From sequence record PZ452595.1: DNA of 64,000 nt. One strand, 5' to 3'. Shown here in pieces: positions 4,401 to 60,570 of the stretch. The translations under genes were made by a program, and so were the position numbers. Every line of letters begins with the position of its first letter. Position 1 is the first letter of the stretch. Source of the stretch: a phage. Below the pieces are notes generated by a model. It saw nothing but the letters and a program-made list of their open reading frames with translations, had not been told where the DNA came from and made no database searches.

Positions 4401-5808
<1,408 letters not shown>

Positions 5809-5812
<4 letters not shown>

Positions 5813-6039
5813 TTATTTTTCTCAACCAATGATTGAATATAATCATGCAGGTCTTTAGATGCTTTACCCCACTTATTTTGATATTCATTTTTGAGATTAG
5901 CACGTGATTGAGCTAATAAAACATCATTAGTTGGAGGTAAAGATTCTAACCGCTGAATCTGGCGTCCATAAATCATTGCAGCCATCTCGGATTCATAAAT
6001 CAATCCTTTGAGATGTTCAAATTGATGCCATGAAATCAT
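5809..6039 (-). CDS. hypothetical protein (pseT.x block)
   Basis: 76 aa ORF, ATG start. Confidence 0.5.
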
Positions 6040-6335
6040 TTACATTTATCCTCTTTTAACTCTTGGCGATAATAACATATCATAGTTTTCTGGTCATGTA
6101 CATATCGTTTTACATCATTAAGCCAAATACGAAATTCCTGGGAATCTTCAAATTGCATACCGACCCAAGCTTTACCATCAATAACTTTAACTTGCCAAGA
6201 TAGTTTAGCTTCGTCATATGACTTTATTTGTACAGGCCAATTAGGATGAACTGTTTCTTTCTTTACTTCTAGAGGCTTTGTCGAACAACCAACTAGAAGA
6301 CCAATAGATAATATTACTGCTGATAGTTTAATCAT
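6036..6335 (-). CDS. putative lipoprotein
   Basis: 99 aa; N-terminal signal peptide ending in lipobox-like LLVGC (MIKLSAVILSIGLLVGCSTK). Confidence 0.5.
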   Translation of the reverse strand: MIKLSAVILSIGLLVGCSTKPLEVKKETVHPNWPVQIKSYDEAKLSWQVKVIDGKAWVGMQFEDSQEFRIWLNDVKRYVHDQKTMICYYRQELKEDKCK

Positions 6336-6685
6336 TTAGAAAGGTCCTGGATGTCTTCTGCGAACTTGTTGAAGGAGTTGTTAATTTGTTTTTCAACCAA
6401 TCCTGGCTTATGAGCCACCACATCCGCCTTCTTTGCGTCTTTGCGCAGTTTTTCATTTTCACGCTCAATAGCAGCAATTGCCTCACGATTTTTATTATTC
6501 ATCGCATCAATATAATTATACTGAATTCGCAAATTATTTAATGCTAAAGCGTTTTCATTGGCTGTTTTTGTAATTTCAGTAACTGATGTTTCTAATCTTT
6601 CTACCTTATTTTTTAAAATAATAGATGTTCCGCCAAATGCTATTACAAGTAATAGCAATCCAGCTGTAAAATTACTTACATGCAT
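6332..6685 (-). CDS. hypothetical membrane-anchored protein
   Basis: 117 aa; one N-terminal hydrophobic helix followed by a charged region. Confidence 0.5.
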   Translation of the reverse strand: MHVSNFTAGLLLLVIAFGGTSIILKNKVERLETSVTEITKTANENALALNNLRIQYNYIDAMNNKNREAIAAIERENEKLRKDAKKADVVAHKPGLVEKQINNSFNKFAEDIQDLSK

Positions 6686-7182
6686 AAAGTTTTAATAACC
6701 TCTATAATATCGTCTTGAGAAAGACCGTTAATTAAAATATGATGTTCAGCTGGAGATTTAGAAATTTTAAAGCATGCCTCAACATCTTCTGCCATATCCG
6801 ATGCACTACGATTTGGATTACTAATACCAAGGCGGTGTTTTCCCGTCAAAGGATTAACGATGATATAGCATTTGCAGCTATTGATATGAACATTGGGTTG
6901 AGTCTGATTAATGAACACTTCACAATCATACTTAGCGAGTTGATTTTCTAAAAAGACTTTCATCTCTTCAACCGCATCAGGAAGCATATCACGGGCTTGC
7001 TCAAGACGACGATTTCGATATTCTTTAATGGTCGTTTTCCGCTTGACTTGTTTAGCTAAATCTTTCTTAAGATCAGTGATATATCCAACTCGACGATTTC
7101 CTTTGAATACAGAAATCCCATCTGTAGTATCACCGTATGCTTCAACGACCATTTCAGTAGTAATAAGCTGCAAATCCATCAT
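6676..7182 (-). CDS. alc: Alc, inhibitor of transcription from cytosine-containing DNA
   Basis: 168 aa (MM start); length and position between rnlA and the pseT.x ORFs match T4 alc. Confidence 0.85.
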   Translation of the reverse strand: MMDLQLITTEMVVEAYGDTTDGISVFKGNRRVGYITDLKKDLAKQVKRKTTIKEYRNRRLEQARDMLPDAVEEMKVFLENQLAKYDCEVFINQTQPNVHINSCKCYIIVNPLTGKHRLGISNPNRSASDMAEDVEACFKISKSPAEHHILINGLSQDDIIEVIKTLCM

Positions 7183-7210
7183 AAAGTCCTCATGTTATGT
7201 TAGTAAGACT

Positions 7211-7240
7211 ACTATAACACAACACGAGGGACTTGTAAAC
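7211..7240 (-). promoter_or_regulatory. T4-type early promoter upstream of alc
   Basis: Minus sense GTTTACA, 17-nt spacer, TGt-TATAGT. Confidence 0.55.
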
Positions 7241-7243
7241 AGC

Positions 7244-8831
<1,588 letters not shown>

Positions 8832-8860
8832 AATAAAATGGGCCTTGCGGCCCACTCCTT
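8832..8860 (-). promoter_or_regulatory. structured ribosome binding site of denA
   Basis: Minus sense: AAGGAG, then 16-nt hairpin UGGGCC-GCAA-GGCCCA (GNRA loop), then 7 nt, then ATG; SD to ATG is 23 nt linear. Confidence 0.5.
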
Positions 8861-10037
8861 AAAAGTATTTTTTAAAACTCATCATAACTTTATCATCAAC
8901 ATCATTATCAATCTGTGCAACAAGGTAAGATGACAGTTCTACTTCTTGTGGCGCGGATTGAACATTATCAGAATTAAGATATTCACGAATCCAAGGATAC
9001 GGATGTTTAACCGGAGCATCGGTAATTGGGCATGGAAGACCACACTGTTTCATACGAGATACAGTTAAGTAATCAATAAAGCTCCACATGCTATTTGTAT
9101 TTAATCCAGGAACATCGCCGTCTTTAAATAAATGAACTGCCCAATCTTTTTCTTGGCGGTTAACTTCCATGAAAATATCAACTGCTTCTTGTTCACACTC
9201 TTGAGCAATTTTAACCCATTCATCGCCATCAGTGCCAAGTTGAAGTTGACGAATAATATATTGAGTGCCTTTAAGGTGAAGCTGCTCATCACGTGCAATG
9301 AACTTCATAATCTTGGCATTACCTTCCATGATTTCCATGTTTTTATGGAAGTTAAAGGTACATGCGAAAGATACATAAAAACGAATAGCTTCCAATGCGT
9401 TGATTACATGCAAACAGAGGTAAAGAGATTTCATTAGCTCACGCTTCCAATATGTCTCATGCTCAATAGCATCTTCAATAACGTCTTCGTCTGCATTAAT
9501 TTCTTTTTGGTATTCGATATCAGCTTTAGCGTTTTCCCAATAACGAGTTTTAATCAGAACATCATCATAATAACGTCCAATGGATTCAGCACGTTTCATA
9601 ATAGCTTCATCTAATACAATTTCATCAAATACCTTCGATGGATCAGTATAAAGATTTCGCATGATATGTGTATATGAACGGCTGTGAATAGTTTCACTAA
9701 AAGTCCACGTAGCAACCCATGTATCAAGGCTTGGGTCTGAAATTAATGACATAAGTACAGCAGACGGCGCACGACCCTGAATGCTATCCAAAAGTGATTG
9801 ATACTTCAGATTATTAGTAAAAATATTTTGCTGATACTGAGGAAGCTTATTAAACTGTGCAGCATCCATCATCAAGTTTACTTCTTCAGGACGCCAGAAA
9901 AATGATAATTGCTTTTCGGTTAAATCTTCAAAAACTTTATGACGTTGAATATCATAACGCGCAATACCAAGACCTGAACCAAAAAACATAGGTTCTTTTA
10001 AAACATCAACTGGATTTGTATTAAAAACTGTGCTCAT
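8859..10037 (-). CDS. nrdB: ribonucleotide reductase small subunit, uninterrupted
   Basis: 392 aa continuous ORF with ATG start; directly downstream of nrdA. Confidence 0.95.
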   Translation of the reverse strand: MSTVFNTNPVDVLKEPMFFGSGLGIARYDIQRHKVFEDLTEKQLSFFWRPEEVNLMMDAAQFNKLPQYQQNIFTNNLKYQSLLDSIQGRAPSAVLMSLISDPSLDTWVATWTFSETIHSRSYTHIMRNLYTDPSKVFDEIVLDEAIMKRAESIGRYYDDVLIKTRYWENAKADIEYQKEINADEDVIEDAIEHETYWKRELMKSLYLCLHVINALEAIRFYVSFACTFNFHKNMEIMEGNAKIMKFIARDEQLHLKGTQYIIRQLQLGTDGDEWVKIAQECEQEAVDIFMEVNRQEKDWAVHLFKDGDVPGLNTNSMWSFIDYLTVSRMKQCGLPCPITDAPVKHPYPWIREYLNSDNVQSAPQEVELSSYLVAQIDNDVDDKVMMSFKKYF

Positions 10038-10088
10038 AAATTTTCCGCTTAGTTAATAGATAGTGACTCGTCCATGAGTCAAATTATA

Positions 10089-12353
10089 TCATAATTTACA
10101 GGATGAACAATCTTCAGCTTTTGGAGTTTCTATTTCATAATCATCAGTACCAGAACCATCACGGGTATTATGATAATAGAAATTTTTTCCGCCAAAATAC
10201 CAAAAATACAAAAGGTCATCAATCATTATTGACATTGGAACCTTGCCTTTAGGGAAGATTTGGGGGTCATAATATGTATTCGCTGAAGCTGATTGACACA
10301 CCCATTTCAGCATAATAGCTACCTGCGTAAGATAAGGTTTATTACCTTTCTTAGCTAATTTCCATGTATAATCATAGAGGTCTATGTTATGCTCAATATT
10401 GGGCACGACTTGATTAAAGGAGCCCTCTTTTGATTCTTTAACAGAGACTGGTCCACGTGGAGGCTCGATACCGTTTGTACTGTTAGAAACTTGGGAAGAT
10501 GACTCACATGGCATAAGTGCTGATAATGTGCTATTACGGATGCCAAAGAGCTTAAGGTCTTCCCGCAGCGACGACCAGTCACAAACGTATTTTGGAGCTG
10601 CGATTTGGTCAATCTTTTTATTGTACCAGTCGATAGGTAATTCGCCTCGAGACCAACGAGTGTCTGAATAATATTCGCAAGGTCCTTTTTCTTTGGCGAG
10701 CTTAATGGATGCTTTAATGAGTCCATACTGTAATCTCTCAAATAGTTCATGTGTTAAATCGTTAGCATCTTCATAAGAAGCAAAGTTACTTGCCAGCCAA
10801 GCTGCATAGTTAGTAACACCTACACCGAGGTTACGACGCTTTTTAGCTTTTTCTGCTTCAGGAACTGGATATCCTTGGTAATCCAAAAGATTATCAAGAG
10901 CGCGAACTTGAACTTCTGCCAATTCATTAATTTTATCTTGGTCTTGCCAGTCAAAATTATCTAGTACGAATGCAGAGAGAGTACACAATCCAATTTCAGC
11001 ATCAGGACTATTCACATCATTTGTTGGAATAGCAATTTCACAGCACAAGTTACTCTGACGAATAGGTGCCTTTTCACGAATAAACGGAGTATAGTTATTC
11101 GTATTATCAATGAACTGTACATAAATCCTTGCTGTTCCTGAGCGTTCAGTCATGAGCAATTCAAATAGTTCACGGGCTTTAATACGCTTTTTACGAATAT
11201 TAGGGTCTTTTTCTGCTGCTTCGTATAATTCACGGAAACGGTCTTGGTCTTTAAAATAAGAATAATAAAGCTCGCCACCCATTTCATGCGGACTGAACAA
11301 AGTAATGTAATCGTTCTTTCCAAAACGTTCCATCATCAAATCATTCAGCTGAACACCATAATCCATATGACGAATGCGGTTTTCTTCTACACCTTTGTTA
11401 TTTTTCAAAACGAGAAGATTTTCAACTTCCAAATGCCAAATAGGATAATAAGCAGTAGCAGCGCCGCCACGAATTCCACCCTGTGAGCATGATTTAACAG
11501 CAGTCTGAAAATGTTTCCAAAAAGGAATAACCCCAGTATGGCGTACTTCACCCATGCCAATCTTAGAACCTTCGGCACGAATCATACCAACGTTAATACC
11601 GATTCCAGCTCGTTTGGAAATATATTCAACAATTGAAGCAGAAGCCTTATTGATAGACTTCAGCGAATCTCCTGCCTCAATAACAACGCATGAACTAAAC
11701 TGTCGAGTCGGAGTACGACAACCAGCCATAATAGGAGTTGGCAATGAAATCTGTCGAGTAGATACTGCTTCATAAAAACGAATAACATGTTTTAATCTAT
11801 CAACAGGTTCATCTTGATGCAGTGCCATTCCAATAGTCATAAATGCAAACTGCGGAGTTTCATAAATTTGACCAGTGGTTTTATCTTTAACTAGATATTT
11901 TTCTTTTAATTGCATCGCCCCGGAATAAGTAAATTCCATATCCCGCTCGTGCTTAATTTTTGATTCTAAAAATGTAATTTCTTCTGCTGAATATTTTGAC
12001 AATAATTCAGGGTCATATTTACCTTCATTTACACAGTAAGAAATATGGTCAATAAATGAACGTGGTTCATACTGCCCATAAACATGCTTACGAAGAGCAA
12101 ACATTAAACAGCGTGCAGCTACATATTGATAATCAGGTTCTTCAACCGAAATAGAATTCGCAGCAGCCTTAATGACAATAGTCTGAATGTCATCAGTTGT
12201 CATTCCATCACGGAGATATGATTTAATATTTTCATATAATTCATAAGGATCTACTGATGTTCCCTCAGCTGCCCAAGATAAAACTTTAATAATTTTTTGT
12301 GGGTCAAAGCTCTGAGAAACACCACTACTTTTGATAACATTAATTAATTGCAT
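10089..12353 (-). CDS. nrdA: ribonucleotide reductase large subunit
   Basis: 754 aa, [25 protein letters not shown]...; ATP-cone N-terminus and class Ia active-site cysteines; same length as T4 NrdA. Confidence 0.96.
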   Translation of the reverse strand: MQLINVIKSSGVSQSFDPQKIIKVLSWAAEGTSVDPYELYENIKSYLRDGMTTDDIQTIVIKAAANSISVEEPDYQYVAARCLMFALRKHVYGQYEPRSFIDHISYCVNEGKYDPELLSKYSAEEITFLESKIKHERDMEFTYSGAMQLKEKYLVKDKTTGQIYETPQFAFMTIGMALHQDEPVDRLKHVIRFYEAVSTRQISLPTPIMAGCRTPTRQFSSCVVIEAGDSLKSINKASASIVEYISKRAGIGINVGMIRAEGSKIGMGEVRHTGVIPFWKHFQTAVKSCSQGGIRGGAATAYYPIWHLEVENLLVLKNNKGVEENRIRHMDYGVQLNDLMMERFGKNDYITLFSPHEMGGELYYSYFKDQDRFRELYEAAEKDPNIRKKRIKARELFELLMTERSGTARIYVQFIDNTNNYTPFIREKAPIRQSNLCCEIAIPTNDVNSPDAEIGLCTLSAFVLDNFDWQDQDKINELAEVQVRALDNLLDYQGYPVPEAEKAKKRRNLGVGVTNYAAWLASNFASYEDANDLTHELFERLQYGLIKASIKLAKEKGPCEYYSDTRWSRGELPIDWYNKKIDQIAAPKYVCDWSSLREDLKLFGIRNSTLSALMPCESSSQVSNSTNGIEPPRGPVSVKESKEGSFNQVVPNIEHNIDLYDYTWKLAKKGNKPYLTQVAIMLKWVCQSASANTYYDPQIFPKGKVPMSIMIDDLLYFWYFGGKNFYYHNTRDGSGTDDYEIETPKAEDCSSCKL

Positions 12354-12670
12354 AAGTCCTCAACTTGAAAATCGTCTTTAAACAATCGGTTAACTATATG
12401 AGCTATTATATCACCATGACACGGCTTTGGTTTACATGTGCATCCTAGCCTCATTCCACGTAAAGGCTCTAAATGTGCTTTAGTTATTTCTCCGGATTTA
12501 ATTCGACGTATAAAATCTTTTTTGAATAATTCAATGGCAGCCTCCCGGCTGCCAGCATCTTTACCGACGTAATTTCCCCAAAATGTACCACGGTGAATAT
12601 TAACATCAAAGTCGGATTTATATTTATTCACTACCCGACATAGACGGCCCGCGCGGTGATAATTCGGCAT
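12344..12670 (-). CDS. hypothetical protein with C-x-C-x4-C-H-G-D motif (nrdA.1 position)
   Basis: 108 aa, ATG start; conserved-looking [12 protein letters not shown] segment; stop overlaps nrdA start. Confidence 0.6.
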
Positions 12671-12887
12671 ATTGTTTTTCCGTTAAAACAGTAATATCAT
12701 AATAACAGTCAGAAGAAATTTTAATGGTGGAAACTTTATTATCAAAATACTCACGGGTCATTTTATGAGTATAATATTTTTTGCCATAAATGATAATAGG
12801 CTGATTTGGTCCTGGAACTTCTAACTCGCTTGGGTTAGGAAGTGTAAAAAGAACAACGTCAGAAGTATCTTTAAATCGTAAAATCAT
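12624..12887 (-). CDS. hypothetical protein (nrdA.2 position)
   Basis: First ATG at 12887 (87 aa); the track start at 12899 is a TTG; overlaps the next ORF by 47 nt. Confidence 0.45.
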
Positions 12888-12907
12888 AAATCCTCGCAAT
12901 AATAAAA

Positions 12908-13767
12908 TTATACCGCCATCTTTCCTTTAATTGGCGGGTGAGATACATAGTCGTTAAGAACAAAATTATGCGGCTTTGCGAATTGACTCAACCAAAATAC
13001 CTGTGATTCTGTGTCCCATTCATCAAATTCATCTGGGAATTTTAATTGTAATTCGCATAAATCCATAGGTTCACGACGCAAAATTTCTTTACATTGTTCT
13101 ACGTGATTCATATAGATATGAGTATTACCGCCAGAAAATATCAAATCTCCCGGAATAAGATTACATATCTTAGCTACAATATGAACTAACGCAGCATATG
13201 ATGCAATATTAAATGGAAGACCGAGGAAAACATCTACTGATCGTTGATACCACTGAAGGTCAAGGTATCCATTACGAACATTAAATTGATAGAACATATG
13301 ACAAGGTGGTAATGCCATCTGCTTGAGTTCAGCTGGATTCCATGCTGAAACAATTTGACGCCTATCATTTGGCAGTTTTTTAATACGATCAATAACTTCT
13401 ATAATTTGGTCTACACCACCAAAATCACGCCACTGTTTTCCATAAATTGGACCAAGTTCACCGCTATGGTATCCTAAATCTTTTGCTTGATTTTCGTAAT
13501 TTTCATCCCAAACTGTTTTGCCTTGGATTAACGAATCATGTTGAATTAATCGCAAATCATTGACATTTGTGCTTCCCGATAAAAACCATATTAGCTCAGC
13601 AATGCAAGCTTTCCAGGCGAGCTTCTTAGTTGTTACTGCAGGAAAACCTTTAGTTAAATCCCAGCGTAATTTAGTACCGAACAAAGCAATTGTTCCTGTG
13701 CCTGTTCGGTCATCGGTTTCGTAGCCATTTTCCAGGATATCTTTAATTAAAAATTGGTATTGTTTCA

Positions 13768-13768
<1 letters not shown>
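12908..13768 (-). CDS. td: thymidylate synthase, intronless
   Basis: ATG at 13768 gives [26 protein letters not shown]... (286 aa), continuous; active-site region [11 protein letters not shown] present; track start 13780 is a TTG. Confidence 0.95.
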
Positions 13769-14793
<1,025 letters not shown>

Positions 14794-14797
<4 letters not shown>

Positions 14798-15153
14798 ATT
14801 ACCTCCCACTGAAAAGAGCTAGAAGCAAATCCGCTATCTTTAATCATTTTAACTAAAGTTACCATTCCTCTGTTAACTGCTTGTGCGATTTCATCAAAAA
14901 CTTCATCAATATCACCATAAAGATCGCTAAAAAGTTCTAATACGTTCTTCTGAACTTTTAATTTACAGCCAACAAATTCGCCTACAGTAAATTCGTTTCC
15001 GCCAATTCCAGTGTAAAACGTAATTACACCAGTTAATGGTCTTTCACTAGAACATAGGTCGTGTGATAAATTAATATAAGCCGTCCCGGGTGTAGTTTTA
15101 AGTTGGCAACGAATACTTACTCGAGCAATTCCAGCTACACGAATGTCAGACAT
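14794..15153 (-). CDS. hypothetical protein (frd.x block)
   Basis: 119 aa, ATG start, stop overlaps next ORF start (ATGA). Confidence 0.55.
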
Positions 15154-15163
15154 ATTATTTTCC

Positions 15164-15406
15164 TCAAACAGACTTTTTCACAATTTTCCAATCAGCTTTA
15201 AACTGCTCGACGTCAGAATGGTAAATCCAGAATCCTGCGCTTTCTCCGTCTTCATAAAGAGGACATCCATCGCATTCATCTTCCCATCCCATGTCACGTA
15301 AAAGATGTTCAGCTTTTTCAACAAGCTCAGAATCTTTACCGATGATATTAAAATACCATTTACCTCTAACTTCTGAATCTTTGATGCTCTGGCGTTGTAA
15401 TCTCAT
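15164..15406 (-). CDS. hypothetical protein (frd.x block)
   Basis: 80 aa, ATG start preceded by GAGGAG; early promoter 15435..15464 upstream. Confidence 0.55.
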   Translation of the reverse strand: MRLQRQSIKDSEVRGKWYFNIIGKDSELVEKAEHLLRDMGWEDECDGCPLYEDGESAGFWIYHSDVEQFKADWKIVKKSV

Positions 15407-15434
15407 TTTATTCTCCTCAGTAGTTGATAGGGTA

Positions 15435-15464
15435 ATAGTATCACACTACTACCCTGTTGTAAAC
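15435..15464 (-). promoter_or_regulatory. T4-type early promoter
   Basis: Minus sense GTTTACA, 17-nt spacer, TGa-TACTAT; shares the CAGTAGTTGATAG leader motif with other sites. Confidence 0.55.
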
Positions 15465-15466
15465 AA

Positions 15467-15727
15467 TTATTTTTGAATTTTATCGAGCCACTTACCAAGC
15501 TTAATCATTTCTTTAGTAGCCTTTTCCATACTTCTGAACTTAACCAATAGAGGATAGGTATCGACACCCATAACTAAACTGGTTACAAGACTGTGTTCAC
15601 CCACAAGCCATAATGAATACGTTTGAATATCGAGCCCGTAATTTCTGTCTTTATGGACCCGTACACCCATCACTTCAAATTTCTCACTAGCTTTTTCTAC
15701 CGCATCCAGGAAATCATCTTTAGTCAT
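15467..15727 (-). CDS. hypothetical protein
   Basis: ATG at 15727 (86 aa, MTKDDFLDAVEK...); track start is TTG. Confidence 0.45.
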   Translation of the reverse strand: MTKDDFLDAVEKASEKFEVMGVRVHKDRNYGLDIQTYSLWLVGEHSLVTSLVMGVDTYPLLVKFRSMEKATKEMIKLGKWLDKIQK

Positions 15728-15728
15728 A

Positions 15729-16115
15729 TTAGGCCTTAAAAGTTTTTCGCAAAAGTTCAATGATTTCGTCTACATTATTTTCGTCAACAATGCAGTGAAT
15801 TTTTGTTACGCCAGAAACCTTGTCTTCGATTTCATCTTCTTCAGAAGTCGGTTCTTTATATTCGCGGAAACAATAAAACTCTTCTTCACGAAGTTCAAAA
15901 TAATCATCACCCATACCATCATCATTATAGATTTCACCATTAGCACAAATGATTTCGGTTACATAATCAAAGCCATCTAAACTTAATATTGATTTAACTT
16001 CAAACCAACCACCATTTTCTTGAATGATGCCGACCATACTAGCATTTGATGAACTAATATCAATGAAAGATTTAATACGATGTGGATTTAACTCGTATTT
16101 TTTGCCGATTTCCAT
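15729..16115 (-). CDS. hypothetical acidic protein
   Basis: ATG at 16115 preceded by GAGGA (128 aa); an upstream ATG at 16130 lacks an SD. Confidence 0.45.
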   Translation of the reverse strand: MEIGKKYELNPHRIKSFIDISSSNASMVGIIQENGGWFEVKSILSLDGFDYVTEIICANGEIYNDDGMGDDYFELREEEFYCFREYKEPTSEEDEIEDKVSGVTKIHCIVDENNVDEIIELLRKTFKA

Positions 16116-16160
16116 TTTGATTTTCCTCATTTTAATAGGGGCTTGATAGCCCCTTGATAA

Positions 16161-16391
16161 TTATTGTTCAATCAGTCCCATGTAAAATTCTGCGTCTTCA
16201 GAATCCATGCCATCACAATATTCATTAGCCATAAAGCGGGTGAGGTCTTCAAGAGGACCTTCAATGACAATAGAAAAATTGCAATAATTGGGATCATCGT
16301 GAATACTTGTGATACTAAGTTCAGGATAACGATTACGAATAATTTCTTCGATATATTCAAAATCAACGATGTCAATATCAACTTTAGCCAT
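16161..16391 (-). CDS. hypothetical protein
   Basis: ATG at 16391 preceded by AGAGGA (76 aa); the longer track frame would start inside the promoter. Confidence 0.45.
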
Positions 16392-16434
16392 ATTATTTTC
16401 CTCTTTAATTATCAGCAGTATTGCCGATAGTTTT

Positions 16435-16463
16435 ATAGTACCATGGAAGGACAAGGATGTAAA
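16435..16463 (-). promoter_or_regulatory. T4-type early promoter
   Basis: Minus sense GTTTACA, 17-nt spacer, TGG-TACTAT; immediately downstream of the gene 32 terminator. Confidence 0.55.
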
Positions 16464-16491
16464 CAGTTTTGCGAAAAATTTTTAAAATAAA

Positions 16492-16514
16492 AAAGGGGAC
16501 CCTAGAGGTCCCCA
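16492..16514 (-). terminator. rho-independent terminator after gene 32
   Basis: Stem GGGGACC / GGTCCCC with 5-nt loop, followed in minus sense by UUUUUAUUUU. Confidence 0.65.
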
Positions 16515-16535
16515 ATTAATTAGTAATATAATCTA

Positions 16536-17444
16536 TTAAAGGTCATTCAAAAGGTCATCCAGGTCCGTGTCATCAGCACTAGATGAACTGCCAGAGCTTG
16601 AGCTCATAAAATCATCTTCAGTTTTTGTATTGAAGTCATCAACATTGAATGCATCCAAATCATCAGCAACTTTATCAGCTTTCTTAGCAGCAGTTGCAGC
16701 GGCACCGCCCATCACAGCAGTTCCCATAACTTGACCGAATTTAGTGCTCAGTTCTTCAAATGATTTGAATTTATCTTTAGAAGTCATTTCAGAAAGGTCA
16801 ACCATTTGTTCGAACAGTTCTTTCTGGAAAGATTCATCATCAATGTTTGGAATCGCAGATTGATTCAGGAATTTAGATTCATCGTAGTTACTAAATCCAG
16901 AAACCTGTTTAACTTTCAGTACAAAGTTAGCACCTTCCCACGGACAAGTTACATCAACCGGAGTTTCACCCATTTCAACATCAACTGCAATCATTGCATT
17001 GATTTTATCCCAGATTTTCTTACCGAAACGGTATTTAAATACTTTACCTTCATTTTCTGGAGCAGCTGGGTCTTTTACAACAAGAATGTTAGCCCAGTAA
17101 GAAGTTTTACGTTTAACAAGACTGTACTCTTTATTGTCAGTGTTGTACAGATCATTTTTACTGATGTATTGACATACTGGGCAAGAATCGTAATCACCGT
17201 GGGTAGATGAACAGTTTTCAATATACCATTTACCATTTTTCTTGAAACCGTGATTTACAAGAATTGCGAATGGTGCTTGTTCATCATTTTTAGACGGAAG
17301 AAAACGAATTACTGCTTGACCGTTACCCGCATTGTCGAGTTTCAGTTTCCACTCGCCTTTATCTTCAGAAGAAAAACCACCTTTATTTCCAGCCAGTTTA
17401 GCCATTTGCGCAGCGAGTTCAGCAGTAGATTTACGTTTAAACAT
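16536..17444 (-). CDS. 32: single-stranded DNA binding protein gp32
   Basis: 302 aa, [24 protein letters not shown]...; zinc-binding residues and acidic C-terminal tail; matches T4 gp32. Confidence 0.96.
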
Positions 17445-17518
17445 TTTTATTTCCTTTTTAATTTAATTAACAGTTGGTGCTATGACGATGTATGACCTCA
17501 TAGCTGGTCAGTAAGATA

Positions 17519-17543
17519 ATTATAATCTATTTATAATAAGCAA
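17519..17543 (-). promoter_or_regulatory. gene 32 regulatory region: middle promoter with overlapping late promoter
   Basis: Minus sense tTGCTTa (MotA-box-like), 12 nt, TATAAT; a late-type TATAAATA lies inside the spacer (17528..17535); AU-rich leader follows. Confidence 0.5.
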
Positions 17544-18197
17544 TTAATACTTGCAAGATTTCACAGTTTCAATGAAAACATTTTTAGCTTTCTGTGAATC
17601 AATATTTAAAATTTTTCTATAAGCCTTTAACTTTATAGAATAATTATTCCAGACTAAATTATCAGTCTGTTCATCATGTTTATCAATTATATTTAAAAAC
17701 GAATCAAGCAAGATAAACGTCTCAAACGAAATTATGTTCGATTGCAGAAGTTTAAAAATATAACTTGACTGAACCTTTGGATTATATTCAAAGATTTCTT
17801 TAAAAGCAGAAACTTCAACTTTTTTACTAAAATAGTAAATATTGCGAATATCTTCTTCAAACTTAAATTTAATTTGCTTTAAGCGTCCGATATATTCACG
17901 ATAAAACACAAGTGCATCAGCGTCAGAGATGTCACCAATCCAAGCATCTTGGTTAGCAACCAAATTACTTATAAAGATTAAAGCAAGTTCCTTTAATTTA
18001 TATTTTTCTGATAACTTCTGGAAAAAATACTTATCCCTTCGCTTTTGATAAGCGGCATCAGACACCCGCATGCACCAATTATACTTAATTACATCATACT
18101 TTCCATTCATATGCTGTTTTATCATTAAGTATAATTTATAAACTGATTTACCATCAATGTATCTTTCACCACCAGCAGGCATGCGGAGTTTAATCAT
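17544..18197 (-). CDS. 59: gp59 helicase loader
   Basis: 217 aa, ATG start; same length and position (33-59-32) as T4 gp59. Confidence 0.9.
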   Translation of the reverse strand: MIKLRMPAGGERYIDGKSVYKLYLMIKQHMNGKYDVIKYNWCMRVSDAAYQKRRDKYFFQKLSEKYKLKELALIFISNLVANQDAWIGDISDADALVFYREYIGRLKQIKFKFEEDIRNIYYFSKKVEVSAFKEIFEYNPKVQSSYIFKLLQSNIISFETFILLDSFLNIIDKHDEQTDNLVWNNYSIKLKAYRKILNIDSQKAKNVFIETVKSCKY

Positions 18198-18532
18198 AGC
18201 AGAAAATCTAATGTATTAGTTTTTTCACAACGAACAACAGAAGGACGTAAAAGATTTTCGTCAATAGCTTCTGACTGAATTTTTTCAATTATACCCGAAG
18301 GAATAAATTTAGCAAATTGAGTTTCAGGAATAGAGTTTTCTTCTAAGAATGCTGTTGTAGCTTCAAGATAACTCATTCCAAACTCTTCTACCATTTTTTC
18401 AATAATAAATCCGTTTTCTTGACGATCAAGAAGCTTTGCTATTTCATCCTTTTCTTTCTTAATTGAAAGTTCTTTTTCTGAAAGACCGGTCTCATCGACC
18501 GGACGAATATCATTTAGAGAAAACTGTGTCAT
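18194..18532 (-). CDS. 33: gp33 late transcription co-activator
   Basis: ATG at 18532 gives MTQFSLNDIRPVDE... (112 aa as in T4); track start is TTG; stop overlaps gene 59 start (ATGA). Confidence 0.88.
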   Translation of the reverse strand: MTQFSLNDIRPVDETGLSEKELSIKKEKDEIAKLLDRQENGFIIEKMVEEFGMSYLEATTAFLEENSIPETQFAKFIPSGIIEKIQSEAIDENLLRPSVVRCEKTNTLDFLL

Positions 18533-18779
18533 AAAGTTCAACTACCTCTTCAGTTTCAGCTTCAAACACATCACGGTTATCTTTATGATACAAAGCTAAT
18601 AGACGATTAAACATCTTACCATCAACGCCAAGTTCATCTTTGGCACGAATTCGAATATCTTTAATCAGTTCATTATAACCGGAAATTTTCAGTTTATGAT
18701 CAGATGCTTCTTTAATAAATTTAGCCAAGTCTTCGCCATGGATAGCTTCATCAAATTCAACCATTTCTTTTTTAGCCAT
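18510..18779 (-). CDS. dsbA: double-stranded DNA binding protein DsbA
   Basis: 89 aa, ATG start; length and position between rnh and 33 match T4 dsbA. Confidence 0.85.
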   Translation of the reverse strand: MAKKEMVEFDEAIHGEDLAKFIKEASDHKLKISGYNELIKDIRIRAKDELGVDGKMFNRLLALYHKDNRDVFEAETEEVVELYDTVFSK

Positions 18780-18787
18780 TATTCACC

Positions 18788-19705
18788 TCAAAATTCATTA
18801 ATGCTATTAGTTAATTTAGAAAGACCCGCTTTTACAAAATATGAATAAATTTTGCCACGCGGTGGTAATTTATATGAATTATAGTAATTCACAATGTTTG
18901 AAGCAATATTATCAGGAATATAATCAAAATCAATTAGAACTAAATTTTCTTTATAACGATTATATTCAGATTCTGTGAGAAGCACCTTAGCTTGCTCACG
19001 GTCATTAGCAATAGCTTCAACGATTGAAGTTTTCATTGAAGGAGTTCGTTCACCTTCAACTCTGGTAAACCAAAAGTCAGATCGTACTTTAACTGAAGCA
19101 ACGTTATCCTTTTTGTCGCCTTTAAGGATTTTAGTCATACAATCAATTTCAGCAGAACCGCTTTTAATTTTAACCCATTTCTTATGCATCGGAGACCATT
19201 GCTTAACATTTGGATATTTGTGAAGCTGAGTGAAGTCACCATCAGATGAAATGATTAAAATCTTATGTCCTTCTAAAGAGAACTTTTTAACAAGAACAGC
19301 AATGTGGTCATCTGCTTCATACTTATCAATATCCATAACAATGTATGGCATATAAGCTTTTAATTCATCTATAACTTTATGGCTGGATTCAAAATAACCT
19401 TCCCAGTCCCAAGTAGATTCTTCTCGTGCTTTTCCACGGTTTTTCTTATAATAATAGGCGAAATCACGACGCCAATATCCAGATTTCGCGTTATCAATAC
19501 ACAGTACAATTTTAGTGTATCCAAGCGTTTTTGCTTTTTTGACATTAAACTTAATTGAGTTCAATATCAAATGACGAACCATTGATAAATTAATTTTTTC
19601 TTTATCTGGGAAGTTTACAAGAGCAGTTGAAAGCGCAATTTGACTAAAGTCAATAAAGCAAATTCCTTCTTTGTAGTCTTCATCCAGCATCATTTCTAAA
19701 TCCAT
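18788..19705 (-). CDS. rnh: RNase H (5'-3' exonuclease / flap endonuclease)
   Basis: ATG at 19705 gives MDLEMMLDEDYKEGIC... (305 aa as in T4); FEN-family acidic residues; track start is TTG. Confidence 0.92.
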   Translation of the reverse strand: MDLEMMLDEDYKEGICFIDFSQIALSTALVNFPDKEKINLSMVRHLILNSIKFNVKKAKTLGYTKIVLCIDNAKSGYWRRDFAYYYKKNRGKAREESTWDWEGYFESSHKVIDELKAYMPYIVMDIDKYEADDHIAVLVKKFSLEGHKILIISSDGDFTQLHKYPNVKQWSPMHKKWVKIKSGSAEIDCMTKILKGDKKDNVASVKVRSDFWFTRVEGERTPSMKTSIVEAIANDREQAKVLLTESEYNRYKENLVLIDFDYIPDNIASNIVNYYNSYKLPPRGKIYSYFVKAGLSKLTNSINEF

Positions 19706-25530: not shown

Positions 25531-28500
25531 ATGGCTACTTTAAAACAAATACAATTTAAAAGAAGCAAAACTGCAGGAGCACGTCCTGCCGCTTCAGTAT
25601 TAGCCGAAGGTGAATTGGCTATAAACTTAAAAGACCGTGTACTTTTTACTAAAGATGACCAAGGAAATATTATTGATCTGGGTTTTGCTAAAGGCGGTAG
25701 TATTGACGGGAATGTTATTCATACAGGCAATTATAACCAAACTGGCGATTATACTTTAAATGGTGTCTTCACTCAGACTGGTAATTTTAATTTAACTGGT
25801 ATTGCTCGAGTAACTCGCGATATTATTGCCGCTGGGCAGATTATGACTGAAGGCGGAGAACTTATTACAAAAAGTTCAGGTACAGCGCATGTTCGTTTTT
25901 TCGATAACAATAGTCGCGAACGCGGAATCATTTATGCCCCGGCTAATGATGGTTTAACTACACAAGTACTTAATATCAGGGTTCAAGACTACGCCGCTGG
26001 TAGCGAAAGCACTTATGCATTTTCAGGCAGTGGACTATTTACTTCACCTGAAGTATCAGCATGGAAATCTATTTCGTCTCCACAAATTCTGACCGACAAA
26101 GTTATTACAAATGGGAAGAAGACGGGAGATTATGACATTTATTCTATGGCAGACAACGTTCCATTGTCTGAAAGCACTACTGCTATTAATCATCTCCGTG
26201 TTATGCGCAATGCTGTAGGCGCTGGTGTATTCCATGAAGTTAAAGATAATGATGGAATAACTTGGTATACTGGAGATGGCTTAGACACTTATCTTTGGTC
26301 GTTTACCTGGACCGGTGGATTGAAAGCAGGCCATTCTATTTCTGTTGGTACTCCTGGTGGCAATAAAGGATACTCTGAATTAGGGACTGCTTCAATTTCT
26401 CTTGGCGATAATGATACCGGGCTAAAATGGCATCAGGACGGATATTTCTATACAGTAAACAACGGAACAAGAACTTTCATCTATGGTCCAGGAGAAACGC
26501 AAAGCCTTAGAAAAATGGTTATGGCTTATTCTCCAGATGGGCTTCTTATGACAACGCCACCGACAGAAAACTATGCTTTGGCTACTGTTGTTACTTACCA
26601 TGATAATAACGCATACGGTGACGGTCAAACTCTTTTAGGATATTATCAAGGCGGTAACTATCATCATTATTTTCGCGGTAAGGGTACTACAAACATTAAT
26701 ACTCACGGCGGTTTGTTAGTTACTCCTGGTAATATTGACGTTATTGGTGGTTCTGTTAATATCGATGGTAGAAATAATGCTTCTACACTGATGTTTAGAG
26801 GTAACACAACTGGTAGTAGTTCAGTTGATAATATGACAATTTCCGTTTGGGGCAATACGTTTACTAATCCTAGTGTAGGTAATCGTAAAAACGTCATGGA
26901 AATTTCTGATGCAACTAGCTGGATGAGTTATATTCAAAGACTTACAACAGGTGAAGTAGAAATGAACGTTAACGGTTCATTTGAATCATCTGGTGTTACT
27001 GCTGGAAATAGAGGAGTTCACACAACGGGCGAAATTTCATCTGGGGCTGTGAATGCGCTTCGTATTTGGAACGCAGATTATGGAGCTATTTTTAGACGTT
27101 CAGAAGGTAGTCTTCATATTATTCCAACTGCTTATGGTGAAGGTAAACATGGTGATATCGGCCCACTTCGCCCGTTTAGTATGGCTTTAGATACCGGTAA
27201 AGTTACTATTCCAGATTTACAATCAAGTTACAATACGTTCGCAGCGAACGGCTATATTAAATTTGTTGGTCATGGAGCGGGTGCCGGCGGTTATGACATT
27301 CAATATGCTCAAGCGGCTCCTATTTTCCAGGAAATTGATGATGATGCTGTAAGCAAATATTATCCTATTGTTAAACAGAAGTTTTTAAATGGTAAAGCCG
27401 TTTGGTCTTTAGGTACTGAAATTAATTCGGGTACATTCGTTATTCATCATCTGAAAGAAGATGGATCACAGGGCCATACATCAAGATTTAATGCTGATGG
27501 TACAGTTAATTTCCCCGATAACGTTCAGGTCGGCGGCGGTGAAGCTACTATTGCTCGCAATGGTAATATTTTCTCAGATATTTGGAAATCGTTTACTTCT
27601 GCGGGAGACACTACAAATATTCGCGATGCGATAGCTACTCGTGTTGCCAAAGAAGGCGATACGATGACCGGTAGGTTGACTTTATCTGCTGGAAATGATG
27701 CCCTTGTTTTAACTGCGGGCGCTGGCGCTTCATCGCACATCCGTAGTGATGTAGGTGGTACAAATAATTGGTATATAGGCAAAGGCGGCGGCGACAATGG
27801 TCTAGGTTTTTACAGTTACATTACACAAGGCGGTGTATACATAACAAATAACGGCGAAATAGCGCTTTCTCCTCAAGGACAAGGAACATTTAATTTTAAT
27901 AGAGACCGCCTTCATATAAACGGTACACAATGGACTGCGCACCAGGGTGGTGGCTGGGGAAACCAATGGAATCAAGAAGCTCCGATATTTATAGATTTTG
28001 GTAATGTTGGTAATGATAGTTATTATCCTATTATTAAAGGAAAATCTGGTATTACTAATGAAGGATACATATCTGGCGTTGATTTTGGTATGCGACGCAT
28101 TACTAATAACTGGGCGCAAGGTATTATTCGTGTAGGTAACCAGGAAAATGGTTCTGATCCACAAGCTATCTATGAATTTCATCACAATGGAGTTCTGTAT
28201 GTTCCTAACATGGTTAAAACTGGAGCAAGATTATCAGCTGGCGGTGGTGACCCGGTGTGGCAAGGCGCATGCGTTGTTATTGGTGATAATGATACTGGAT
28301 TAGTTCATGGTGGTGATGGACGAATTAATATGGTTGCAAATGGAGTTCATATTGCTTCATGGTCTTCATCTTATCATTCTCATCCAGGCCTTTGGGATTC
28401 AAACGGAGCTTTGTGGACAGAAGTTGGCAAAGCAATTATTTCTCATGGTCATTTAGTTCAGGCGAATGACAGCTATTCAACGTTTGTCCGTGATGTTTAT

Positions 28501-28842
28501 GTCCGCTCTGATATTCGTGTTAAAAAAGACCTCGTTAAATTTGAAAATGCTTCTGAAAAGCTTTCTAAAATTAACGGTTACACTTATATGCAGAAACGTG
28601 GAACTGACGAAGAAGGTAATCAGAAATGGGAACCTAACGCCGGTTTAATTGCTCAAGAAGTTCAAGCTATTTTACCAGAATTAGTTGAAGGCGACCCGGA
28701 TGGTGAAGCTTTACTTCGTTTGAACTATAACGGTGTAATTGGTTTAAATACAGCTGCAATCAATGAGCATACTGCAGAAATTGCGGAACTTAAATCAGAA
28801 ATTGAAGAACTTAAAGCATTAGTTAAATCATTGTTAAAATAA
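25531..28842 (+). CDS. 37: long tail fiber distal subunit gp37 with C-terminal intramolecular chaperone module
   Basis: 1103 aa, AAGAGGA upstream; the C-terminal ~110 aa begin at an S|DIRVKKDL motif and end in a coiled-coil heptad segment. Confidence 0.95.
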
Positions 28843-28847
28843 TAAGA

Positions 28848-28861
28848 GGGGCTTCGGCCCC
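28848..28861 (+). promoter_or_regulatory. intercistronic hairpin between genes 37 and 38
   Basis: GGGGC-UUCG-GCCCC immediately followed by the gene 38 SD GGAGG; no U-run. Confidence 0.4.
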
Positions 28862-28873
28862 TTGGAGGTTTAT

Positions 28874-29650
28874 ATGGCAGTAACAGGACCGTGGGTAGGA
28901 TCGTCTGCAGTAGTTAATACAGGACAAAATTGGATGGGTGGTGCCGCGCAGAGATTGAGAATGGGAATTCCGTTTTGGATGAGTAATATGATAGGTCGAT
29001 CTGTTGAAATAATTCACACGCTTGGAGCAGACCATAACTTCAATGGTCAATGGTTCCGAGATAGATGTTTTGAGGCAGGTAGTGCACCTATAGTGTTTAA
29101 TATCACTGGAGATTTAGTATCATATTCTAAAGATGTTCCTTTATTCTTCATGTATGGAGATACACCCAATGAATATGTTCAGTTGAATATACACGGCGTA
29201 ACGATGTATGGTCGTGGCGGTAATGGCGGTAGCAATAGTCCTGGCTCAGCTGGAGGTCATTGTATTCAAAACGATATTGGTGGGAGACTAAGAATTAATA
29301 ATGGTGGAGCTATTGCAGGCGGCGGTGGCGGCGGTGGCGGCGGATATTATTCTCCTTTTTCACAAATGAGATTGACCTTTGGCGGCGGCGGTGGGCGTCC
29401 GTTTGGTGCACCTGGCGGATCTATTGATATGCAATCAGGAGCGACTGGCGGTACTATTTCTGCACCTGGCTCAGGATCCGTGAATGGTATCTATAATGGT
29501 GGAAACGGTGGTGAAGTAGGTTCCGCGGGAGGTAGATGCAATATTCGCGGTCAAGGATCTGAATATAATGGCGGCGATGCTGGTTATGCCGTCATAGGGT
29601 CCGCTCCAACGTGGATAAATGTTGGAGCAATATATGGTCCAAGAGTATAA
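28874..29650 (+). CDS. 38: gp38 receptor-binding adhesin, T2-type with polyglycine motifs
   Basis: ATG at 28874 with GGAGG 5 nt upstream (258 aa; the track frame adds 4 codons from a TTG); C-terminal half has Gly runs ([20 protein letters not shown]) separating short variable segments. Confidence 0.88.
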
Positions 29651-40990: not shown

Positions 40991-42808
40991 CTATTGGCTC
41001 ATCCATTCTTTACGAAGGTCAGCATTATCTCCCATGAGCATTTCAAAAAGCTCTTTCCAGTTCTCAGGAAGTTTAACAACATCATATACTGGGTTTTGAA
41101 TCATCTCACGATATTCAGATTTTTCCAAAGAGCCAAGTCCTTTAATATAACGGATGCTATGTTTAGGTAAAGCATCTTTAGCACTCTCATATTCAGCGAC
41201 TGTATAAAACCATTCTTGTTTTTTACCGACCTGAGCGATGATTACAGGAGTTTTGACGAAGCGAATTCGTCCTTGCTCAAACAATTCTGGCCAATTACTA
41301 AAAAATCCAAGCAGAGAAGGATAAATGCTTCCTAGACCATCATGGTCAGCATCAGTCATAATAGCAATATTATGATAATTCAAGTTTTCAGCTTTTTCAC
41401 CGAGAACTAATCCAGTGATTGCGCAAATATCAAATAGTTCTTTGTTTTTAAGCATATCTGCATAAGACATACCCCAGCTATTAAGAACTTTACCACGCAA
41501 TGGATAACCACCGTGAAGTTCTTTATCACGAACATCAATAAGATATCCGATAGCAGAATCACCCTCAGTCAAGAAAAGAGTAGTGTCAGCATCTTTACCA
41601 CAAAGATTCGCTTTGATATGTTTATGAACCTTAGCTTTAGAAGCCTTTTTAGCTGCTTTAGTTTCTGCTGCTTTTTCTGCCGCCAATTTACGAGCCAAAG
41701 CAGCTTCAATAATCGGCATTAGAATTGCTTCATTATTTAGAATAGCACGTGAAATCTTTTTAGCATCAAGCTGAATATGACTACGGATTTCACCAAATGG
41801 AGAAGTCAAACGCTCTTTAGTTTGAGAATCAAATCGCATGTTTTTCATATCACGAACAAACATAACGATTGTCAAACATTCTTTTACACGCGCTTTAGTT
41901 ACATCAATTTTGAACTTACGTTTGATTTGTGGAATAAGGTCTTCACAAATATCATCCATAACACAGTCAATGTGATGGCCACCATTCTTAGTGTGAATGT
42001 TATTGACGTATGTTAATTGACGAAAACCATCCGGTGAACGACCAACCGCAATAGAACAATTTTCTTGTTCTTGAACGATAGCATGCTCATCATATTGGCG
42101 TGCATATTTCTTAAAATTGCCCTGAACCTTTTTACCATTAAAGGTAAATTGAATATCAGGATAAACTACTGCAAGTGTCTGGAGACGATCTAGTGTAATG
42201 TCAAGATAAACTTGGGACAGCTCATTAGTTTCAAATGACATAAAATCAGGAATGAAAGTAACACGAGTTCCTTTCCATTTTCCAGGAATATCTTCCCATG
42301 ATTTATTTTCCATGCCATTTGAACAACGAACTACAATATTATTTTGACCATCACCAGTTTCACCGACAAACATCACAGAAAAAATGTTTGTCAAACTAGA
42401 ACCAACACCATTCATACCACCGGTGACGCGTTCTTTATCATCACCGAAGTTACCACCTGCTTTTGGAATAGTCCATGCAGCAACAGGACCAGGAATTTCT
42501 TCACCGGTAGGTGTTTTAACCATCGCTTGTGGAATACCACGACCGTTATCTTCAACTGTTACTTGATTGTTTTTAATAGTAACATTAATTTTATTTGCGA
42601 ATTTAAACTTAGTACGAATACCTTCATCTACTGAGTTATCGATAATTTCATCAATAAGCTTAACAAGACCAGGTACATACTGAACACTTTCCCATTTACC
42701 AAACAGAAAGCGCTCATGCATTTCATTAGCAGAAGAGCCGATGTACATGCCACTGCGCTTTTTGATATGTTCAATATCGCTCAGAATTTTAATTTCATTC
42801 TTAATCAT
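40991..42808 (-). CDS. 39: topoisomerase II large subunit, unsplit (39 + 60 in one frame)
   Basis: ATG at 42808 (605 aa); GHKL ATPase motifs (EIIDNSVDE, GRGIP) and Toprim region (…IAIMTDADHDG…) in one continuous frame; no gene 60 gap. Confidence 0.93.
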   Translation of the reverse strand: MIKNEIKILSDIEHIKKRSGMYIGSSANEMHERFLFGKWESVQYVPGLVKLIDEIIDNSVDEGIRTKFKFANKINVTIKNNQVTVEDNGRGIPQAMVKTPTGEEIPGPVAAWTIPKAGGNFGDDKERVTGGMNGVGSSLTNIFSVMFVGETGDGQNNIVVRCSNGMENKSWEDIPGKWKGTRVTFIPDFMSFETNELSQVYLDITLDRLQTLAVVYPDIQFTFNGKKVQGNFKKYARQYDEHAIVQEQENCSIAVGRSPDGFRQLTYVNNIHTKNGGHHIDCVMDDICEDLIPQIKRKFKIDVTKARVKECLTIVMFVRDMKNMRFDSQTKERLTSPFGEIRSHIQLDAKKISRAILNNEAILMPIIEAALARKLAAEKAAETKAAKKASKAKVHKHIKANLCGKDADTTLFLTEGDSAIGYLIDVRDKELHGGYPLRGKVLNSWGMSYADMLKNKELFDICAITGLVLGEKAENLNYHNIAIMTDADHDGLGSIYPSLLGFFSNWPELFEQGRIRFVKTPVIIAQVGKKQEWFYTVAEYESAKDALPKHSIRYIKGLGSLEKSEYREMIQNPVYDVVKLPENWKELFEMLMGDNADLRKEWMSQ

Positions 42809-42861
42809 CACTTATCCTCGTTTGGTTTCGGGAATATTATACTCCAATAATCATAAAGCTA

Positions 42862-53990: not shown

Positions 53991-54020
53991 GTAATTCTCC
54001 TTTTATTTAAATTACATGAT

Positions 54021-54028
54021 TATTTATA
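54021..54028 (-). promoter_or_regulatory. late promoter for soc
   Basis: Minus sense TATAAATA about 30 nt upstream of the soc ATG. Confidence 0.55.
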
Positions 54029-54073
54029 ATAAATTCTCGCGGCTTTTAAGTCGTCGTTTAAATAAACGAGCTA

Positions 54074-54592
54074 TTAATAGCCTCGATCTTGACGTGCGAA
54101 ATTTTCGGCATTTTTCAGATAATAAAGTTTAAAGATTTCCTCAGCTGACATTCCAAGAGCAATAAATTTATTCATAAAAAAGTGAAATTGGTCAATCAGT
54201 TCAAATTTAATTTCAAGCTGATCTTCAGGAGATAAGTCTTGAATTTTCTTGGATTGCATTTCAGAATAACGTTTCTTCCAAGGTTTCCATACGGCAGAAG
54301 CTTCTTTTTCACCATTACTCATACCACCAAGAGAAGTATATAGCTCGCGAGTTTCATCTGCGATATAATCGTCTTGGTTTCGCAGCCAAGCAAGAACTTC
54401 TCCTGCGGTTTCAAGTGAATCAGGATGACGATTTGTTTCTGGCTTATCATTAGCCAAACGAATCTGTAAAGACCGCTGCATATCAAGCATAACCTGCAAT
54501 GGGTCTTTTTCATCACCGAGAATATCCCAGTATTCATTTTGAGCTTTATCAACACCTTCGATCAAATGAGCGCATTCATTAAAGTGAGCCAT
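54074..54592 (-). CDS. 56: dCTP pyrophosphatase gp56
   Basis: ATG at 54592 gives MAHFNECAHLIEGVDKAQNEYWDILGDE... (172 aa, MazG-like); the track frame has a hydrophobic N-terminal extension. Confidence 0.88.
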   Translation of the reverse strand: MAHFNECAHLIEGVDKAQNEYWDILGDEKDPLQVMLDMQRSLQIRLANDKPETNRHPDSLETAGEVLAWLRNQDDYIADETRELYTSLGGMSNGEKEASAVWKPWKKRYSEMQSKKIQDLSPEDQLEIKFELIDQFHFFMNKFIALGMSAEEIFKLYYLKNAENFARQDRGY

Positions 54593-54626
54593 TATTTTTC
54601 CTTTCAATTCATGGGTTAGTAGATTA

Positions 54627-54650
54627 ATTATACAATAAATATATAAAGCA
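54627..54650 (-). promoter_or_regulatory. MotA-dependent middle promoter for gene 56
   Basis: Minus sense tTGCTTtA (MotA box), 11-nt spacer, TATAAT. Confidence 0.55.
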
Positions 54651-54663
54651 ATAAGGAGGACAT

Positions 54664-54864
54664 ATGGTACAAAAATTAATGGCACTTGTTGATGCCATAA
54701 AAGGTAATAAGAAACGTATAGCTTTTACTATTTCTGCTATGGTAGGAATTTTACTCTGGAACTTTATTCTATCACCTGTTGCGATTGCACATGGTATTAA
54801 TATTCCAGTAGTTACTCTTGATACATTCGTAGATTTAGCATTTGCTTTAGTTGGGTTAATTTAA
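54664..54864 (+). CDS. small two-helix membrane protein, divergent from gene 56
   Basis: 66 aa plus-strand ORF (MVQKLMALVDAIKGNKKRIAFTISAMVGILLWNFIL...); AAGGAGGA 5 nt upstream of ATG; stop overlaps the gene 61 stop convergently. Confidence 0.4.
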   Translation: MVQKLMALVDAIKGNKKRIAFTISAMVGILLWNFILSPVAIAHGINIPVVTLDTFVDLAFALVGLI

Positions 54865-60493: not shown

Positions 60494-60570
60494 TCATTTT
60501 TTCCATAGGCATCATTATATTTTCCTCACTGGTTAAAGATAGAGTAATTATAACACAATAAATTTAGGCA

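Follow-up and report, generated by a model that had tools for sequence, protein, structure and literature searches.

What stands, in a relative of phage T4, at the places where T4 itself carries the td and nrdB introns and the endonuclease genes mobE and segG, and would the alleles found there be open to invasion by those elements? Sequence record PZ452595.1, a 64,000-nucleotide stretch of phage DNA (referred to hereafter as the window), spans all of these loci. We find each of them empty, and give a probability of roughly 0.85 to the reading that they are T2-type alleles which would be targets of the endonucleases of a T4-like donor. The window belongs to a Tequatrovirus (closest to AR1, RB27, CM8 and Maryam, ~97% identity); megablast searches of positions 8500-18500 and 1-25000 against the phage collection matched >1000 records, the top ones being Tequatrovirus AR1, RB27, CM8, Sf21 and Maryam at ~95-97.5% identity. 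Genes were assigned from the list of open reading frames (ORFs) and Pfam, and run in the order denA-nrdB-nrdA-nrdA.1-nrdA.2-td-68-aa ORF-frd-small ORFs-32-59, all on the minus strand. The region is the standard T-even nucleotide-metabolism/replication cluster, in the endonuclease-free form typified by T2.

Comparison of the window with T4 by blastn reveals four clean deletions, corresponding to the td intron, the nrdB intron, nrdB.1 plus mobE, and segG, and the T4 annotation agrees on the location of these introns and endonuclease genes; mobA/60.1, segF and segA are likewise missing across the whole 64-kb window (blastn and tblastn against T4). The original prediction, made from the letters and reading frames alone, had held that the td and nrdB introns, mobE, segG and segF are absent, and the clean blastn breakpoints and short gaps bear this out; td and nrdB are, as it also claimed, continuous, each being a single uninterrupted ORF that matches its Pfam family. 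It had further put the nrdA-nrdB and 59-32 gaps at 52 and 100 nt: the gaps are indeed short, and their exact sizes are 51 and 99 nt, the earlier figures being coordinate differences that are each off by one. Its statement that denA encodes the only GIY-YIG protein was confirmed in that Pfam finds no other. The denA gene (endonuclease II; 8421-8855, minus strand; Pfam GIY-YIG E=4.8e-6) gives a product 100% identical to T4 DenA by tblastn (144/144 aa), and is a conserved host-DNA nuclease rather than a homing endonuclease.

The td gene (12908-13768, minus strand; Pfam Thymidylat_synt E=3e-94) encodes 286 aa from an ATG at 13768; its 861 nt equal the length of both spliced T4 td and T2 td, and its translation is colinear with that of T4. 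The intron with I-TevI (T4 143547-144563, 1017 nt by blastn; the intron ends lie 1016 nt apart in the related phages Maryam and PYps11T) is missing between window positions 13220|13219, leaving an empty insertion site with an open frame. This site and the putative I-TevI homing site around it (13208-13246, minus strand) read CAACGATCAGTAGATGTTTTCCTCGGT|CTTCCATTTAAT. I-TevI recognizes a 5'-CNNNG-3' motif (native CAACG) placed for cuts 23 and 25 nt upstream of the insertion, requires C1 and G5 of that motif, and otherwise tolerates many substitutions in its 38-bp site (PMC5009752, PMC2988022). In the window, CAACG stands at the native distance, -27 to -23 (13242-13246), and the stretch from the motif to the insertion site is free of indels.

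An alignment of the td site from the window (CAACGATCAGTAGATGTTTTCCTCGGT|CTTCCATTTAATATTGCATCA), T2 (...GTTTTTCTTGGT|CTTCCATTT...) and T4 (CAACGCTCAG...TTCTTGGGT|CTACCGTTT...) informs on the nature of the remaining differences. Relative to T2, the window differs at -7 and -4 only, both changes being synonymous; relative to T4, nucleotide-level comparison finds CAACG and its spacing kept and five differences within the 38-bp site, at -22, -6, -4, +3 and +6. The exon-II half is identical to that of T2 and, over the 35 nt compared, to that of Maryam, which has the intron (PYps11T differs at +28). In the exon-I half of the 20-bp primary binding region, which is centred on the insertion site, the differences lie at -7 and -4 when T2 is the reference and at -6 and -4 when it is T4. 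The same bases enter the P1 helix with the intron guide: T4-type bases at -4/-6 complete 8 bp (-7.3 kcal/mol), while exon I of the window gives -5.5 and that of T2 -3.1 kcal/mol. Elsewhere in the gene, a dense T4-divergent patch at 12978-13065, in the C-terminal part, encodes ~30 residues of different peptide; it is common to Maryam, and PYps11T is T4-like there, marking a mosaic boundary inside td exon II.

The nrdB gene (8859-10037, minus strand; Pfam Ribonuc_red_sm) is an uninterrupted T2-type allele of 392 aa, equal in length to that of T2 (1179 nt) and 93.9% identical to it at the nucleotide level. The 598-nt T4 intron with its I-TevIII relic is missing between 9362|9361, and the empty site, together with the I-TevIII homing-site region, taken here as -30 to +20 (9342-9391, minus strand), has the junction ...TATGTATCTTTCGCAT|GTACCTTTAAC... 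Within this region -5, -2 and +20 differ from the intron-deleted sequence of T4, and the region around -14/-16, at which the RB3 I-TevIII enzyme cuts (PMC1865063), is unchanged. The exon-2 part is 97.7% and the exon-1 part 84.5% identical to T4; along the sequence, T4 identity falls from 97.7% (5806-9361) to 84.5% (9361-10037) exactly at the intron site, and T4 nrdB exon 1, between mobE and the intron, represents a sequence lineage other than the T2-type exon 1 of the window.

Exon 1 also contains the putative target of MobE, which comprises nt 114-131 of nrdB, nick codon 42 included, and in addition the FFWRPEE block (9882-9924, minus strand; site as defined in PMC2790892). Wilson & Edgell mapped MobE-dependent nicks to codon 42 of T2 nrdB, a codon that is AAG in all mobE-less phages, and the FFWRPEE-coding block was proposed as the MobE binding module (PMC2790892). 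The window, which has neither mobE nor the nrdB intron, has AAG at codon 42 (9912-9914) followed by the FFWRPEE-coding block at codons 46-52 (TTT TTC TGG CGT CCT GAA GAA), nucleotide-identical to T2; across codons 33-56 it matches T2 save for three synonymous changes (CAA/CAG, TTA/TTG and, later, TTG/TTA). Maryam carries a T4-like patch at nrdB codons 34-41, just 5' of the nick codon, though it is without mobE; this patch may be the leftover of an earlier recombination at the site.

Differences of this kind raise the prospect that the alleles are resistant, i.e. that synonymous changes in the recognition sites were selected because they block cutting, and that the sites are empty for that reason. 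We regard this as unlikely. It would accommodate the two changes of the td site from T2, a proven substrate, and the five from T4, the nrdB changes at -5/-2, the CAA/TTA found immediately 3' of the MobE nick codon in place of the CAG/TTG of T2, and the fact that endonuclease scarcity in most T-even phages is unexplained despite efficient homing (PMC2988022). Yet CAACG is preserved at its proper spacing and I-TevI is generally tolerant in its binding region; the Maryam intron sits in an exon-II context identical to that of the window over 35 nt, meaning that on this side the sequence is no bar to invasion; codon 42 of nrdB is AAG, which every phage without mobE has, T2 with its nicked allele among them; and all of the differences are synonymous third-position changes, of a kind seen throughout these genes. 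It is highly unlikely that the particular variants td CCTCGGT (TCTTGGT in T2) and nrdB TTTCGCAT (TTTTGCGT in T4 with the intron deleted) act as escape alleles; if they did, I-TevI/I-TevIII cutting would be lowered, or P1 pairing weakened so as to penalise invaded progeny, and the empty state would be actively maintained, not merely a matter of not yet having been invaded.

Between nrdA (10089-12353, minus strand; 754 aa; Pfam ATP-cone, Ribonuc_red_lgN and Ribonuc_red_lgC) and nrdB, the empty mobE/nrdB.1 site is a gap of 51 nt (10038-10088, minus strand), 50/51 identical to T2; T4 holds 700 nt of nrdB.1 plus mobE (139720-140419) where the window has this gap (10038-10088/92). The gap contains a TATAAT and a hairpin, TGACTC-ATGGAC-GAGTCA, at 10064-10081, the latter identical in T2. 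The hairpin is weakly terminator-like in a simple scan; mobE-less phages have no terminator in the nrdA-nrdB gap according to the mobE paper (PMC2790892).

Between gene 59 (helicase loader; 17544-18197, minus strand; Pfam T4_Gp59_N and T4_Gp59_C) and gene 32, the empty segG site is a gap of 99 nt (17445-17543, minus strand), 98/99 identical to T2, in which 35 nt (17508-17542) occupy the place of ~623 nt of segG in T4. This gap holds the T4 late-promoter consensus TATAAATA at 17528-17535, a TGCTT...TATAAT arrangement that is middle-promoter-like, and a stem-forming sequence with UUAAA repeats that resembles the gene 32 translational operator/pseudoknot (an operator described in PMC535899). The promoters of gene 32 in T4 sit within segG (PMC2988022). 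The consensus TATAAATA is not enriched in the window (7 found against 9.2 expected), and it is its position upstream of gene 32, not its count, that is meaningful. Neither short gap is vacant filler: the signals for the native expression of nrdB lie in the one and those for gene 32 in the other; T4 had to relocate these signals inside mobE and segG.

Gene 32 itself (16536-17444, minus strand; 302 aa, 909 nt; Pfam gp32) is T2-type, having an extra codon near nt 70 that is common to T2 and differing from T2 at ~14 positions in its first 420 nt (~97% identity). Liu et al. reportedly placed, in 2003, the SegG cut ~330 bp from the segG insertion. SegG and SegF are known to exclude T2 genes 32 and 56 (PMC2330249).

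Remnants of introns or endonucleases at these junctions would have spoken against alleles that are simply empty; none were found there by tblastn, short-word blastn, Pfam/PHROGs or Rfam. A tblastn search of the window with ten T4 endonucleases (MobA/B/C/E, SegA/F/G, I-TevI/II/III) plus NrdB.1, gp60.1 and Dam gave a best E of 0.096 and nothing at the junctions; that best match, from mobE, lies at an unrelated place, and all segG matches have E>=3. Short-word blastn with the DNA of the elements returned scattered matches of 13-20 nt, none at the junctions. Real queries gave ~9 such matches each and shuffled ones ~3.6; we ascribe this excess to shared AT-rich promoter-like words. Neither Pfam nor PHROGs finds a GIY-YIG or HNH homing-endonuclease domain in the segments that have no T4 counterpart (four stretches of 45-148 nt left aside). 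The small ORFs of 68, 85, 119 and 97 aa were rejected as endonuclease relics: they fall in PHROGs of unknown function, are shared by relatives, and give no Pfam match even at E<=5.

For intron RNA, the Rfam group I model RF00028 run in E-value mode over 8000-19000 gave no match up to E=10, under settings that detect the T4 td and nrdB introns at 40.3 and 35.7 bits. We set aside the corresponding negative at the gathering threshold, at which both T4 introns are also missed: the model (gathering score 50 bits) sees the 3' halves of these introns alone, at 36-40 bits, so phage introns that contain an ORF would escape Rfam at its default settings. Weak matches to other Rfam models (snoRNAs, L20 leader, tmRNA; E 0.09-10) are far below their gathering scores and were taken as chance.

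The reference for an empty state is T2 (AP018813), the recipient tested in T4 x T2 partial- and marker-exclusion crosses (PMC2790892, PMC2330249). The lengths of nrdB, td, gene 32 and both gaps are equal in the two phages, and the identical td exon-II site, the CAACG motif, the AAG at codon 42 and the FFWRPEE nucleotides are common to them; they differ in the two synonymous td exon-I changes and, at 93.9% identity, in nrdB overall. AR1, RB27, CM8 and Sf21 are 95-97% identical to the window over the whole 10-kb region, none being identical to it (the best reaches ~97%), and they appear to be insertion-free in that their match spans in the hit tables are near the query length, leaving no room for insertions of 0.6-1.0 kb. 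These comparisons also bear on the trivial explanation that collapsed or mis-joined contigs dropped the insertions during assembly, a possibility to which we attach negligible weight and for which we found no supporting point: each of the four junctions either keeps its reading frame or is matched exactly by T2, an independent genome, hundreds of independent records have contiguous junctions, and the 200-bp td junction of Sf21 is 100% identical to that of the window.

Two relatives, Maryam (PQ799574) and PYps11T (MT515751), share the gene order and backbone of the window (~97% identity, with the T4-absent ORFs of 68, 85 and 119 aa) and have, as it does, empty nrdB and nrdA-nrdB sites. Unlike the window, both contain the 1016-nt td intron with I-TevI, and also segG, in each case flanked by T4-like tracts. 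These tracts were mapped by scoring every site at which the window and T4 differ. At td, the T4-like tract is confined to exon I, running from window position 13346 or 13307 down to 13223 and including -4 and -6, and exon II is window-like from +3 on. At the other locus, the tract in both relatives extends from segG into gene 32 as far as 17199, with window-like sequence from 17148 (~310-360 nt). I-TevI stays bound to exon II and leaves exon I open to degradation, giving rise to an exon-I bias in co-conversion (PMC2988022), and the exon-I-only td tract matches that published bias. Such tracts are what homing into a window-like allele would be expected to leave, although they do not by themselves prove direction; the pair provides a clear natural example of exon-I-biased td co-conversion and of a segG-linked gene 32 tract.

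The mosaic character of the region allows for a further account, whereby ancestral elements were lost secondarily, either cut out by a precise deletion or swapped out in recombination with an intronless, T2-like phage, such that the present alleles are "cured". The contrast within nrdB between exon 1 (84.5% T4 identity) and exon 2 (97.7%), the part T4-like and part T2-like gene 56 (see below), and the T4-like patch at nrdB codons 34-41 of mobE-less Maryam are all of the kind that such an account would predict, and they indicate that recombination of whole alleles is frequent. Set against this, no scar or remnant was found at the sites, and the gaps are near-identical to those of T2 and carry native promoters, which is most simply understood as the ancestral state. 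We therefore treat secondary loss as a minor possibility, and one that would not alter the present status of the alleles: a cured allele is still empty and presumably cleavable.

The reading we prefer is that of naive target alleles, as the original prediction had proposed, and it is well supported by the T2-type sequence, by the lack of remnants and by relatives that carry the td intron and segG. In mechanistic terms, the introns and free-standing endonuclease genes of T4 are optional selfish insertions, for all of which this phage has empty sites. The presumed target sequences are essentially those of T2 (CAACG and the binding region in td, AAG/FFWRPEE in nrdB, and the 5' third of gene 32), and for that reason we infer that, on co-infection with a T4-like donor, the donor endonucleases would cut or nick these exact window alleles. 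Repair from the donor copies would then bring in the element together with flanking donor sequence, by way of homing, intronless homing or marker exclusion. Several considerations weigh against this reading. The td differences from T2 (-7, -4) and from T4 (five) could lower cutting by I-TevI, and the -5/-2 differences of nrdB from the T4 intron-deleted sequence could lower that by I-TevIII; the window represents 64 kb of the genome, and endonuclease genes may lie elsewhere in the phage; and the comparisons leave the direction of events undecided between alleles that were never invaded and alleles that were invaded and then cured.

Further loci in the window depart from T4. T4 (NC_000866) has the same gene order as the window and flanking DNA that is 93-98% identical, and its DenA is the same protein; in the corresponding interval it has, in addition to the td and nrdB introns, nrdB.1/mobE and segG, also mobA/60.1 with the gene 60 bypass, segF, segA and dam. 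The topoisomerase large subunit of the window is a single 606-aa ORF (40991-42811), equivalent to a fusion of genes 39 and 60, in which 64 nt (junction 41327-41390) stand where T4 has a 1.1-kb segment with mobA, 60.1 and the translational bypass of 50 nt. The segF gene is missing from the 56-soc gap, which measures 83 nt and holds TATAAATA at 54021-54028 (within 53991-54685). Gene 56 is itself mosaic: its identity is 90.5% with T2 and 77.6% with T4, and its N-terminus is T4-like. Also missing is dam (T4 16846-17625), in place of which ~20 nt (54632-54653) lie between the region upstream of gene 56 and the gene 61 region; T4 Dam as a tblastn query has no match in the window. T2 differs here, having two small ORFs between 56 and soc, and dam plus a further ORF at the dam position, all absent from the window.

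T4 segA and the beta-glucosyltransferase gene are replaced at 60482-61427 by a 282-aa protein (ORF 60571-61419), which matches phrog_842 (beta-glucosyl-HMC-alpha-glucosyltransferase) and Pfam TAGT; these matches point to a putative T2/T6-type DNA glucosylation. Genes 37 (distal tail fibre) and 38 (25531-29650) have no DNA similarity to T4, and the 262-aa gp38 is a T2-type adhesin (Pfam GP38). Within the cluster, T4-absent small ORFs lie in 13768-13974, 14552-15153 and 15467-15760. The first of these, on the minus strand between td and frd (dihydrofolate reductase; 13971-14552, minus strand; Pfam DHFR_1; 95.8% identical to T4), encodes 68 aa, overlaps both neighbours by a few nt, matches phrog_9550 (unknown function) at E=1e-45 and is found in Maryam and PYps11T; T2 has a different ORF, of 115 aa, in this slot.

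As the finding is an absence, it is to be weighed against the state of other phages and not against a chance expectation. How widely the empty sites occur was gauged on a comparison set of ~520 Tequatrovirus-level records. Element matches at >=80% coverage were obtained in 197 records for the td intron, 118 for the nrdB intron and 142 for segG; mobE gave any match in ~140 records and reached >=80% coverage in 21. A 200-bp probe over the td junction of the window is contiguous in 743 records, and a probe of the 59-32 gap in 505. Homing-endonuclease genes number 15 in T4, against 1 in T2 and none in RB26 or RB69 (PMC2993671 Table 5), and T4 is described as the outlier (PMC2993671, PMC2988022). 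Empty sites are the majority state among sequenced phages.

That introns and free-standing endonucleases are unevenly distributed over the T-even phages has been on record since the 1990s, as has the role of T2-type empty alleles as recipients in marker exclusion. The finding is thus correct yet ordinary and already known, and describes the normal state of most T-even phages. In practice its use is modest: annotation can be carried over to the region from T2 and T4 with confidence, and the phage would be usable as the recipient when homing is followed in crosses.

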